Assembly: GCA_965197905.1 (NCBI GenBank)
Contig: CBDAOB010000004.1
Coordinates: forward strand, 1,248,001-1,312,000
DNA: 64,000 nucleotides
From: Candidatus Latescibacterota bacterium
GTDB lineage: Bacteria > Latescibacterota > UBA2968 > UBA8231
Direction of reading: 5' to 3'
Notes under the pieces: model-generated
Told to the model about the DNA's origin: nothing
Databases searched by the model: none
Seen by the model: only the letters and a program-made list of their open reading frames with translations
In this document: one piece after another, positions 20,584 through 25,073 of the stretch
How the letters are laid out: each line of letters opens with the position of its first letter
Position numbering within the stretch: the stretch's first letter is position 1
Translations under genes and position numbers: made by a program

Positions 20584-21849
20584 ATGTCAAGAATCTCTGT
20601 TTCAGGAATGATAGCGATCCTGGTTATGTCCTTCGCCGGCTGCGGCGGCAGCGAGGACAAATCACCCCTGGCATCTCCCACGCCGTCGACCCCATCATCG
20701 GGAAGCATCGCGGAAGATTCGACGACGCCTGGAAACGATGGGGAAAGCGCCCAAGCAGGTACGGATGCGTCGACCGACTCGTCGCCTATCTTGGGTGGCG
20801 GGACCGGGATGGGGTCTGCGACCTCATTGCCTTCCCCGAGCGGACTTAATCCTTCGTTCGTGGGCAACTTCCTCGACGTAAACAGCTTTCCCCTCAATCT
20901 GATTCTGTCCGGCGGACCACCCAAGGATGGTATTCCCGCACTGACGAATCCGACGTTTGCGGCGGATGCCACGTATTTGTTCGACGAAGATCTGGTCCTG
21001 GGCGTGGTGATCAATGGCGTGGCCCGCGCCTACCCGCACAATATCGGTTGGTGGCACGAGATTGTGAACGACGAGATCGGCGGCGAGTTCATATCCGTGA
21101 CCTTCTGCCCCCTCACCGGCACCGGATTGGTATTCGACGCCACCGACGAAACCGGTGAGCAGTTCGAACTCGGCGTCTCCGGCCTGCTCTTCAACACCAA
21201 TCTGATCATGTATGATCGCCGCGACGGCACGACCCTTTATCCGCAAATGACCTTCACGGGCCTGCAGGGCTCCCGTGAAGGCCAAGCATTGAGCCTGCTA
21301 CCGGTGGTGGAGACTACGTGGAGCACCTGGAAAAGACTACATCCAGATACGCAGGTTGTAGCCGAGGGGCCGTACTCCGTTACCAGGTATGGCAGTTATC
21401 CCTATGGCAACTACCGCAGCAACGACGGCCAGTTTCTCTTCCCTCTGACGCCCCCCCTGCAATCCTTCGACGGCGCTAAGGATATGGTCCTGGGGGTGCG
21501 GCTGGACGGCGAAGCCAAGGCGTATCCGTTCGAGAAGATGGGGCAGCAGGCGATCATCAACGACCAGGTAGGAGGTGTGGACATCGCGGTGTTGTGGGAT
21601 CGGGGGAGTTCGCTCGCCATTCCGTACGCCCGCGAGGTGGGCGACCAGGTATTGAGCTTCGAGCTCCAGACCGACGACGGCTTCCCGTTCCTGTTGAGAG
21701 ACCGGGAAACGCAAAGCCTGTGGAATGTGAACGGACAGGCCATCGAAGGTCCCCTGGAAGGCCAGCAGCTAACCCAGATTCCCGCCCACAATAGCATGTA
21801 TTTCGCCTGGATAACATTCTGGCAGAATAGTGAAGTGTGGAACCCGTAA
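20584..21849 (+). CDS. DUF3179-family lipoprotein
   Basis: Lipobox FAGC; S/T/P-rich linker; GGPPKDGIPAL, HEIVND, TFCPLTGT, SGLL, YFAW. Confidence 0.88.
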   Translation: MSRISVSGMIAILVMSFAGCGGSEDKSPLASPTPSTPSSGSIAEDSTTPGNDGESAQAGTDASTDSSPILGGGTGMGSATSLPSPSGLNPSFVGNFLDVNSFPLNLILSGGPPKDGIPALTNPTFAADATYLFDEDLVLGVVINGVARAYPHNIGWWHEIVNDEIGGEFISVTFCPLTGTGLVFDATDETGEQFELGVSGLLFNTNLIMYDRRDGTTLYPQMTFTGLQGSREGQALSLLPVVETTWSTWKRLHPDTQVVAEGPYSVTRYGSYPYGNYRSNDGQFLFPLTPPLQSFDGAKDMVLGVRLDGEAKAYPFEKMGQQAIINDQVGGVDIAVLWDRGSSLAIPYAREVGDQVLSFELQTDDGFPFLLRDRETQSLWNVNGQAIEGPLEGQQLTQIPAHNSMYFAWITFWQNSEVWNP

Positions 21850-22830: not shown

Positions 22831-23799
22831 CTAGCTCGGCACATTGCTCTTGTAGTCGAGGGGTAACTCGAAATCGATCAGTTCCGGAAAGTAACACTCG
22901 TGCGCGTCGCAAGCCTGGAATCGCAGACGCGCCTGTACTGTAAACGACTCTTTGCGATGGTTGCGAATCGGCGCCGTGAGCAGAATGCGGCCATCGTAGA
23001 TCGGCAGGGTCTCGCCGAGACCTTCCAAGAGAAGGAGTCTTGGCTCGGGATAGGCAACATCTCCAAAGTGGACATCCCCGACCTCCTGAAAGGTGAGCGT
23101 GGTCGGAACGTAGTTCTCCGGGAGCGGACGGCCATAGAGATGGCTGCCTTCTCTGACCTCGATCTCAGCGGTGAAGGTCAGCACCTGGCCTGGGCGGACG
23201 GTTCGCGCGGAGAGGTAAGCGGTCGCATCCACCCTTTCAGAGCTCGAAGTCTGCACCACGCCGCGGCTGGCATCCTCGATTCGAAAGACATCCCCGAGCA
23301 TACGAGAGACCGCATCCCGGACGCCGTGATTGGCGTAGAAGGAACGATCGATAACGGTGCCATGTTCGTCGGCCACTATAGTACCGGGAAAAGGGACCCC
23401 GTACCAGGCATGATCCACAGGGATGTGGGTGTTGAAAATACCGAAACGACGGATGACAGCGCTATCGGTATCGGCCAGTAGCGGATATGAGATATCGTGT
23501 TTCTCCGCGAATTCGCCAAGAACCTGCACCGTGTCATAGCTGATGGCGCAGACCCGGATGGCGTTGTTCTCGAATTCCGCTTCGCGTTCCTGCAGTTCGA
23601 CCAACTGCGTTCGGCAGGGAGGTCACCAGGAAGCGCTTCGATGAAAAAGGATCAGAGCCTTATTCGTCCCATCCGGCTGGTAGCGAAACGGCTTGCCGAA
23701 CTGATCGGGAAGGGTGAATTCGGGAATCCGCTCGCCGACCTCGGGACCCTTGGCAAACTCTTCGCTGGTGGGATCGCCGGAATTTTTCAGCTCTGCCAT
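22831..23799 (-). CDS. Probable selenoprotein: AhpC/TSA-type redoxin (UxxC) fused to DsbD N-terminal-like domain
   Basis: ATG 23799 with GGAG RBS gives MAELK...GERIPEFTLPDQFG...FHRSASW-TGA(23623-25)-PPCRTQLVELQ, in frame with ORF 22831..23604; C-terminal FQACDAHECYFP. Confidence 0.85.
23592..23608 (-). promoter_or_regulatory. Putative bacterial SECIS hairpin
   Basis: GCAGUU-GGUCG-AACUGC begins 14 nt after the UGA; loop starts 20 nt downstream with G first. Confidence 0.65.
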
Positions 23800-23863
23800 T
23801 TCTTAGAAACTCCTTCTGGCGATGTAACCGAGTCGCTTGGATTCCCTGGCTCGAACCGAAGAA

Positions 23864-25073
23864 TCAAGCGTACTGTTCCATCCTCTCGCTGACCGCTTTG
23901 CCCTTGCCCCTTACGATGTCGTCGCGTTGCCAGGTCGCCGCAGCGCGATAGATGTCACTCTCTTCGCCGACCGTCTTCTGAAGCTGTGCTGGCGTGAGCC
24001 ACTCAGCGCGATTTCCGTTTTCGACCAGCGATGCAGCCAGGGATTCTTCGGGTGAGTAACCGTAGACTCGACAAATGCCATCGTCCTGCTCGACGTCTTC
24101 GATATAGGACATCCACGGGACCTCGATCCCGATCTGCTGCTGCGTGAGCGCTTGCAGCGACCCGATCCGGGCCCCAACGTCCCAGCCGACACCCTCCTCT
24201 TCCTCCCAACCTTCGCCCCCGGGCAGTTCAAGCCGATCATTCTCCTGGTCGTGCAGTACGAGAAACTTAGACTGATCTCCCACCGAGTCCTCGATCAGTA
24301 AACGCGTTGTAGAGATCGGTTTGTCGAACCAGACCGGGATCAACCGCTTACCGAAGTCGCTGAGCGCTTCGAGGGCCGCCGGATCATATGGGTAGTAACC
24401 TGCCGCCGGCGGCGCGTTGACCGCACAGTACTTGTTGAAGATGCCGCAACGATCCTTGTCCGTTGTGCCTGGGGGAGCCTTGTGCCAGGTATGACCGTGC
24501 ATGAGTAGCAGGTCCCCGGCCTTGAGTTCAGAATCGATGAAATCGGGGAGCCGCTTTTCGTCGGGCCGCGTAACATCCCATATCGGACCAGTGGTATCCC
24601 ATTCCGACAGCCGGTGCGATCCAGGCGACACGAGAAGCGGACCGTATTCGGGGTTGAAATCCGTCAGCGGGATGATCGCAAACAGCCAGTTCATCGACGA
24701 GCCGACCGGTCGCCAGCGTTTGTAATCGCAGTGTGCGCCGCCCCCTTTGTCCCCGGGGACTCCGGAGATAAGCAACGTACGCGGTGAGGTGGGCAGGTTG
24801 TCCGAGCAACGCTTCCACGGCATCGACAACAACTGGATGTTCCGCGATCGGGGCCAGACCCGGCGCGGAAATTCGGTTGCCGCTGATGGTGTATTTGCCG
24901 GGTTCGGGATAAGTCAGGGTAGAGGGATATCCCATATGAGGGGTGTATTCCACTACGGTGCGGCGAAGATCGTCGGCTTCCCCTGAAGACAGCACATCGC
25001 GAATGATCAGGTAACCCTCTTTCTGGTAATCCGCGCTCTGCTGATCCGTCAAAGCAGCGGTCATTGTGGCCAT
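23864..25073 (-). pseudogene. Phytanoyl-CoA dioxygenase (PhyH) family with Nudix-like C-terminal region, frameshifted
   Basis: N-part (YQKEGYLIIRDVLS...YLRSP) and C-part (GDKGGGAHCD...GSH...AGDLLLMHGHTWH) join if one C is removed from CCCCGGGG at ~24751-24758. Confidence 0.8.

Follow-up and report, generated by a model that had tools for sequence, protein, structure and literature searches.

Redox domains of the DsbD-alpha type have an immunoglobulin (Ig) fold and, to our knowledge, have so far been characterised only in the cell envelope. According to the available text of PMC3137068, Escherichia coli nDsbD carries Cys103-Cys109 in a CX5C spacing and has thioredoxin-fold partners (cDsbD, DsbC and CcmG); the alpha-A domain of ScsB has CX3C in the available part of PMC10907172. 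A protein that joins such a domain to a redoxin has already appeared in selenoprotein surveys. The available portion of supplementary file 4 of PMC1794560 includes a full-length Solibacter usitatus orthologue under 'Prx-like thiol:disulfide oxidoreductase', and that of Dataset S1 of PMC2398784 (GOS) includes RSADWU reads and RSAVWU reads (13 of each); at least one read is filed under 'Prx-like 1', and one extends as far as the C-terminal cysteines. The entries for this family in both works are computational predictions. In its available sections, the 2026 review PMC13188914 places the Prx-like family (PF00578, UxxC) among 119 families, has no entry for a redoxin-DsbD_N fusion and mentions DsbD once, for the unrelated TsoB; the term 'DsbD' is absent from the main text of PMC2398784 and from the supplements of PMC1794560. 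Our literature search found no description of a redoxin-DsbD_N fusion (subscription journals and bioRxiv supplements lay outside its scope) and nothing on Latescibacterota among the matches listed. Atlas clusters are already auto-labelled AhpC/TSA plus DsbD N-terminal. The gene described here belongs to a family predicted as selenoproteins since 2006 and would not surprise a selenoprotein specialist; its new aspect is the fused DsbD-type domain in an apparently cytoplasmic version.

We analyzed a stretch of 64,000 nucleotides (the window) from a Candidatus Latescibacterota genome, in which the gene occupies the minus strand (Table 1). Its frame starts with the ATG at 23799-23797 and cannot be extended further 5', because an in-frame TAA (23805-23803) lies two codons upstream. 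The table-11 open reading frame starts at a TTG at 23604, and an earlier sequence-only reading had placed the true start, with a ribosome-binding site, 65 codons upstream; the ATG at 23799 and the AGGAG at 23810-23814 confirm this. AGGAG or AGGGAGG also precedes the ATG in three relatives (L024, L025 and L026), where that ATG lies 58 codons ahead of the TGA. The same reading had the redox motif opening with a TGA as the sole interruption, and codon 59 (23625-23623) is indeed the single break in the 322-codon frame, in the context SASW*PPC, or SASW-U-PPC when read through. At 22831..23799 there is a genuine gene for a predicted selenium-dependent redox enzyme, which gene callers shorten at its internal UGA.

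Table 1. Features of the redoxin-Ig gene, in window coordinates.
Feature	Position	Strand	Details and basis
Whole selenoprotein gene	22831..23799	-	322 codons/322 aa with UGA59 read as Sec; stop TAG 22833-22831
Shine-Dalgarno-like AGGAG	23810..23814	-	10 nt 5' of ATG; from sequence
Prx-like (AhpC/TSA) thioredoxin-fold domain	23272..23754	-	About residues 16-176; PF00578 and structural matches
In-frame TGA, codon 59, predicted Sec of UxxC	23623..23625	-	TGA conserved in relatives; C62 at 23616-23614
Bacterial SECIS hairpin GCAGUU-GGUCG-AACUGC	23592..23608	-	Consensus constraints and compensatory synonymous changes
Pro138	23386..23388	-	Peroxiredoxin catalytic Arg position (AhpE Arg116)
DsbD-alpha/ScsB-alpha-type Ig-fold domain	22849..23268	-	About residues 178-317; Pfam, fold search, Atlas
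Second cysteine pair C297-X4-C302, with Q295 and H220-x-Y222 strand	22894..22911	-	Conservation counts

The source genome encodes selA, selB, selD and tRNA-Sec, and its selD carries an in-frame TGA of its own; selA also scored above its cut-off in all seven related carriers tested. We detected the redoxin-Ig gene in 8 of 61 genomes of the same taxonomic family and in 17 of 168 of the phylum. Codon 59 is TGA in 16/16 same-phylum loci read, a count that leaves aside the 17th (L171), a partial match with several stops. One orthologue among the 16 (L026, in genome G012) is interrupted by a premature TAG within the Ig domain; since the almost identical P0014 from the database has its full length, this TAG is either a strain-level break or an assembly error. 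To sample the codon more widely, we searched metagenomes with a pattern that left it open (TGN); the residues encoded around the hairpin are prescribed by this pattern, and Cys forms may be underrepresented in what it retrieves. It yielded at least 120 stretches, 80 of them listed as loci, and in these 80 codon 59 is TGA in 78, TGT in 2 and TGG in none. At the protein level, the full motif is present in 35 of 267 database proteins, with Cys in 29, W in 4, L in 1 and S in 1; the W entries are most simply UGA translated as Trp by gene callers. Sec and Cys forms are intermixed on the family tree. Three of six tested pairs had unsaturated dS, and their dN/dS ratios 5' of the UGA were 0.40, 0.09 and 0.10; dN is smaller than dS on either side of UGA59. 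Contigs from two DNA samples span the TGA with zero differences, although one may be the source itself and the other covers just 12 letters on one side, and this agreement carries little weight. The search of sequencing runs had no RNA sample with the gene among the matches listed, and the plasmid collection gave zero matches at an E value of ≤1e-15.

The hairpin downstream of the UGA consists of a 6-bp stem and a GGUCG loop (23602-23598) that begins 20 nt past the UGA, with a predicted energy of -8.0 kcal/mol. It satisfies all four bacterial SECIS consensus constraints quoted in the available part of PMC13188914, and selD of the source genome has a similar GGUC loop. The sequence-only reading had pointed to this hairpin at SECIS distance; it is present at that distance, and taken alone it lies within chance. 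Folding of the 66-nt region gave a nonsignificant z of 0.44, and loosely similar hairpins occur at 1830 of 46790 open-frame TGAs of the source genome (3.9%), a scan too noisy for listing selenoproteins that served solely as background. We count the hairpin as support because its stem covaries across relatives, and not from the single-sequence fold. Of 86 Sec-coding sequences, 67 are distinct and 61 of these were testable by length; a perfect 6-bp stem was found in 52/61, whereas 2000 simulations that followed the codon usage of each individual gene predicted 5.0 and never exceeded 14. One stem pair is C-G in 59/67 and U-A in 8/67 with zero mismatches, and its neighbor (n = 67) is G-C in 55, A-U in 8, G-U in 3 and mismatched in 1. 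The U-A change arose 3 to 4 times in separate lineages and the A-U change about 5 times, and coupling is absent between hairpin positions that are not partners. Both Cys genes disrupt a stem pair that 85/86 Sec genes retain. Counting against the element, the outermost pair is missing in 7 of 8 further genomes, which leaves 5 bp.

These comparisons demonstrate, at the level of sequence, that UGA59 is selected as a sense codon with a covarying SECIS downstream and the Sec machinery present, and they make its recoding as Sec almost certain. The claim of a hidden selenoprotein is thus strongly supported by Sec machinery, TGA conservation and SECIS covariation. The competing explanation is a pseudogene or two genes, with a TGA that would stem from a nonsense mutation or a sequencing error or would code for Trp. 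It draws on the one-base insertion resembling an assembly error in the adjacent PhyH gene, on the few W entries and on the two relatives disrupted elsewhere in the gene (the premature TAG of L026 and the several stops of L171). We give it a negligible chance and regard it as already refuted by the sequence comparisons: the codon is TGA in 16/16 and 78/80 listed loci, never TGG, with Cys as the remainder, the SECIS covaries, the region 5' of the TGA is under purifying selection, and many family members also use TGA as an ordinary stop.

The main value of these observations is an annotation fix. Among the matches listed in the protein search, 102 of 120 homologues begin downstream of the redox motif and lack the active site because gene callers restart past the UGA; 36 close homologues begin where the short open reading frame of the window does or just after. 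The redoxin-DsbD_N fusion is not covered by any NCBIfam model, and the family would be mostly selenoprotein and mostly truncated in databases.

For the N-terminal domain, Pfam PF00578 (AhpC-TSA) matched residues 21-150 with 91.7 bits (cut-off, 26), bearing out the AhpC/TSA N terminus proposed from the sequence, and this match together with U59xxC62 places the protein among the Prx-like thiol:disulfide oxidoreductase selenoproteins. The AlphaFold model of the whole chain has a pLDDT of 90.6 and a pTM of 0.85, and its N-domain matches AhpE and BCP at Z 18-19 and ResA/TlpA at Z 12-15. When the family profile is set against an AhpE alignment, R54 falls on the motif Pro position, U59 on the Thr position and P138 on the catalytic Arg116, so that both the canonical PxxxT/SxxC(U) motif and the catalytic Arg of peroxiredoxins are missing. 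Pro138 is invariant in 47/47 family proteins (146/148 in a wider set) and would correspond to the thioredoxin-type cis-Pro. Because Sec opens a UxxC motif where peroxiredoxins have Thr, and because Pro138 replaces the peroxiredoxin Arg, we read the domain as an oxidoreductase rather than a peroxidase, that is, as a predicted thiol-disulfide UxxC site on a Prx-like scaffold devoid of the peroxiredoxin catalytic Pro/Thr/Arg. NCBIfam assigned zero families to the window protein at cut-off. The named selenoprotein models (SelL_rel_redox, WAxxUGC_long, perox_SUH and redoxin_TUGYCR) stayed below their cut-offs (for P0001, 40.9 versus 120 and 34.7 versus 300), and against 47 family members they gave weak matches (best E, 1.7e-14). 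Caulobacter PrxL was considered as the closest family and set apart by its description alone, which in the available source gives another CDD class and distant cysteines.

The second half of the anatomy proposed earlier, a DsbD N-terminal-like domain at the C terminus, is strongly supported as well. Pfam PF11412 (DsbD_N) covers residues 201-306 with 36.1 bits (cut-off, 25), and a wide fold search retrieved the N-terminal domain of ScsB (6c29; 127 residues aligned at Z 11.8 and rmsd 2.6) and DsbD-alpha (1jpe; 109 residues at Z 10.6 and rmsd 2.6); the first two fold searches had given thioredoxin-fold matches alone. Atlas neighbors of this domain are DsbD_N clusters (0.94-0.96). Its sequence profile found 0 matches among PDB sequences at an E value of ≤10, and a single-sequence model of the domain alone reached a pLDDT of 41. 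The motif ACDAHEC, likened earlier to a CxxxxC of nDsbD, is present and contains C297 and C302, but nDsbD has CX5C, and CX4C is a spacing of its own, found in 47/47 redoxin-Ig proteins. H220, Q295, C297 and C302 are all invariant in these 47; in the wider set (n = 148), Q295 and the first Cys are conserved in 148, the second Cys in 147, H220 in 143 and Y222 in 138. The features of a DsbD/ScsB membrane transporter are absent, as the window protein has neither a DsbD_TM match nor a signal-like segment.

We assessed localization with a hydropathy heuristic, and eight further genes of the phylum by eye. The heuristic found no hydrophobic N-terminal segment in the window protein, and a signal-like N terminus is present in 0/8 same-family genes (heuristic) and in 0/8 further phylum genes (by eye). 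The absence of a signal peptide noted earlier therefore holds for the window lineage but not for the redoxin-Ig family, since 65 of the 80 listed metagenome members have a signal-like hydrophobic N terminus. In a family tree of 87 rows with a midpoint root (the frameshifted L056 was left out), the window gene falls in a 15-row clade (support, 100/99), 13 rows of which are without a signal. Among the 80 listed loci, the Ig domain is present in 59, the contig end cuts off 13 and the frame closes without it in 8; three of these 8 (L035, L051 and L068) are natural-looking single-domain genes that end 114-120 aa past the Sec without an Ig domain. The family comprises 556 clusters at 50% identity with E values of ≤1e-30. 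Variants with a tandem redoxin-Ig duplication or an extra N-terminal domain also occur (P0122, 616 aa; L066, L076 and P0058), and the second copy of the tandem unit has SxxC instead of UxxC. At four loci a further hidden selenoprotein accompanies the family gene: a WASW-U-GC redoxin adjoins it downstream on the same strand (L029/L030), and a FASW-U-VGC redoxin-TPR protein is adjacent to it (L068/L070).

Next to the gene in the window lie a gene of the PhyH family and one for an aldo-keto reductase, neighbors that it shares only with the same-genus genome, and no conserved operon partner was found in the window lineage. The upstream PhyH-family gene (window 23864-25073, minus strand) consists of two overlapping open reading frames, because a CCCCGGGG run at 24758-24751 is one base too long; in the same-genus genome the frame is unbroken (419 aa), and the split looks like a homopolymer assembly error. 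Also in the window, at 20584-21849 on the plus strand, is a DUF3179 lipoprotein-like gene; its family is listed among selenoproteins, and the copy here is the Cys form (CPLT). In L045, too, a DUF3179 gene immediately precedes the redoxin-Ig family gene on its upstream side. We scanned the neighborhoods of relatives with Pfam (236 ORFs of 241 filtered, from 697 raw) and found no CcdA/DsbD membrane domain among these 236. Exported forms neighbor sigma-70 factors (15 loci), OsmC-like (9), DUF1223 (9), EthD (8), NrsF (4) and DUF692 (3) genes, with single cases of MsrA/MsrB, VKOR and MerT/MerR; these counts are not independent, because many of the loci are related. According to the available text of PMC12452194, DUF692, DUF2282, NrsF and DoxX are markers of bufferin copper-stress clusters. 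Seven exported members (L043, L073, L079, L103, L065, L109 and L032), from several separate branches of the tree, are part of or adjoin gene clusters of the sigma factor/NrsF and bufferin types (DUF2282 or Cys-rich precursors, DUF692, DoxX). A promoter/terminator scan gave nothing exceeding chance.

Elsewhere in the source genome (G000), TrxB and two thioredoxins scored over cut-off, and DsbD_TM has a sole match, an ScsB-type protein that is complete with all three domains and has a signal-like N terminus. A long protein (L020, G000:C4:1982182-1985071, plus strand) has an N-terminal CYWC thioredoxin-like part, which we take to be DUF255-like, and a C-terminal DsbD_N-type module with QACDDTRC; by its motifs it is a second thioredoxin-fold and Ig-module fusion in this genome. 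Seven further likely selenoprotein genes with an in-frame TGA lie at C4:453304 (-), C5:1123863 (+), C3:436095 (+), C5:758974 (-), C3:749097 (-), C4:2057446 (-) and C4:607021 (+). Judged by their motifs, they presumably include a signal-bearing Prx-like protein (YRGKW-U-GYC), a BCP-type protein (TGG-U), two TlpA-like proteins (U-x-x-C), a DsbA-like protein (U-PYC), a SelW-like protein (CTG-U) and SelD.

By analogy with DsbD, we give an even chance to a model in which the 322-aa product is a soluble selenoprotein whose Sec site is recycled by the fused Ig domain with electrons from an outside thioredoxin-fold donor. The thioredoxin-fold domain would be the working end, since L035, L051 and L068 end naturally without the Ig domain. 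Sec59 would attack an oxidized substrate, either a protein disulfide or another oxidized thiol, and C62 would resolve the adduct to a selenenyl-sulfide, which the Ig domain (C297/C302) would reduce to recycle U59/C62 in the manner in which nDsbD reduces CcmG and DsbC. In the signal-less lineage the donor to the Ig domain would be cytoplasmic thioredoxin with thioredoxin reductase, which the TrxB and thioredoxin matches make available, and in exported relatives the gamma domain of DsbD/ScsB. Electrons would then flow from NADPH through TrxB and TrxA to C297/C302, U59/C62 and the substrate, with the Ig domain as a built-in adaptor linking two thioredoxin folds.

A purely structural disulfide is not expected in signal-less (cytoplasmic) proteins. 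We propose the Ig domain as a redox partner because it has the DsbD-alpha/ScsB-alpha fold and its Cys pair is retained in signal-less members read whole, because the partners of nDsbD are thioredoxin-fold proteins and because redoxin-only relatives exist; the second thioredoxin-fold and Ig-module protein of the genome also counts in its favor. As both redox pairs are near-invariant, a relay between U59/C62 and C297/C302 appears plausible, and its direction, from the Ig domain to the Sec redoxin, would follow by analogy only. The "self-contained" relay claimed earlier is unlikely: lacking any part that binds NAD(P)H or flavin, the protein would need an outside electron donor. Against the explanation as a whole we count the CX4C spacing, which matches neither nDsbD nor ScsB, the lack of PDB matches to the C-domain profile at an E value of ≤10 and a fold nearer to true peroxiredoxins than to ResA/TlpA; the high pTM could reflect a fixed packing that holds the two redox centers apart. 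The patchy distribution of the gene (17/168 phylum genomes), broken in 2/17, and the lack of a conserved partner also count against this explanation. The more specific proposal, that an envelope-type DsbD-alpha Ig domain works in the cytoplasm and passes thioredoxin electrons to a fused Sec redoxin, we put forward tentatively, with rather more doubt than confidence; the signal-less branch (Latescibacterota and others) would then have redeployed a reductive module of the envelope in the cytoplasm.

The electrons could also run the other way, with the Sec redoxin acting as cDsbD (gamma) to reduce the Ig domain (alpha), which would pass them to other thioredoxin-fold proteins as a soluble gamma-alpha module. 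The CxxC of cDsbD opens with Cys461, which attacks the disulfide of nDsbD (PMC3137068, available text), and Sec holds the same position here, and Cho et al. propose a primitive chain from CcdA through a thioredoxin-like protein to ScsB-alpha (PMC3322552, available part). We consider this reversal unlikely, since no CcdA/DsbD membrane domain occurs among the 236 neighboring ORFs scanned, the lone DsbD_TM match of the genome is already a complete ScsB-type protein and members consisting of the redoxin alone exist. Still less likely is that the two centers are independent, the Ig domain binding metal (H220/C297/C302) or substrate in a copper or heavy-metal stress role. The near-invariance of H220, the binding and transfer of Cu(I) by ScsB in vitro (PMC10907172, available part) and the NrsF (4 loci), DUF692 (3 loci), bufferin-like precursor and MerT/MerR neighbors of exported relatives speak for such a role; yet the His is also found in the ScsB-type DsbD of this genome (GWHTYW), these neighbors are absent from the window locus and from the scanned ORFs beside seven same-family relatives, and a sigma-F promoter consensus matched 0/82 upstream regions.

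Selenols readily reduce peroxides, and the N-domain could be a noncanonical Sec-dependent peroxidase that the Ig cysteines resolve or recycle, as it matches AhpE, BCP and other peroxiredoxins best in structure and as genes for oxidative or metal stress are often found close to exported relatives (OsmC-like at 9 loci, MsrA/MsrB at one). The domain lacks the PxxxTxxC/U motif and the catalytic Arg, however, a true Sec-Prx has its Sec at the second position (TxxU), as in the paralogue of this genome at C5:1123863, and peroxidase activity was reportedly absent from a Prx-like protein of Caulobacter that belongs to another CDD class; we regard a peroxidase as the most improbable of these three functions. 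Recycling of the Sec site by the Ig domain is easy to test because natural Cys orthologues exist; if true, it would offer a compact, soluble system for studying how electrons pass between DsbD-alpha and thioredoxin folds when the attacking atom is selenium, and the first case of a DsbD-alpha envelope domain active in the cytoplasm.

Compared with known systems, the N-domain finds its closest solved folds in AhpE and BCP/PrxQ, from which it differs by its missing catalytic residues and by a PRK09437 score of 57.9 bits (cut-off, 140). It shares the W-C/U-x-x-C motif and the downstream Pro with TlpA, ResA and CcmG, the natural partners of DsbD-alpha-type domains, but its scores with ResA (Z 14.6) and CcmG (Z 10.6) are below those with peroxiredoxins, and the ResA model gives 40.6 (cut-off, 170). 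The characterized TlpA/ResA/CcmG proteins and those of the ScsB to TlpA to PprX pathway (PMC3322552, available part) are separate, exported and Cys-only, unlike the fusion in the window. The C-domain has the Ig fold of nDsbD (1jpe) and ScsB alpha-A (6c29) and exceeds the Pfam DsbD_N cut-off, and its Q-x-C and aromatic strand appear to match Gln101/Cys103 and Tyr40/Tyr42 of nDsbD by position; it differs from both in having CX4C rather than CX5C or CX3C, a His at the Tyr40-like position, and a C-terminal, redoxin-fused placement without a membrane domain or, in this lineage, a signal peptide. The nearest described relative is the Solibacter usitatus entry (PMC1794560, available part), which has the same two-domain length, RSADWUPYCKTQLVEL where the window protein has RSASWUPPCRTQLVEL, and a C-terminal QACDDKKC matching QACDxxxC; it bears a hydrophobic N-terminal leader, and the window protein does not.
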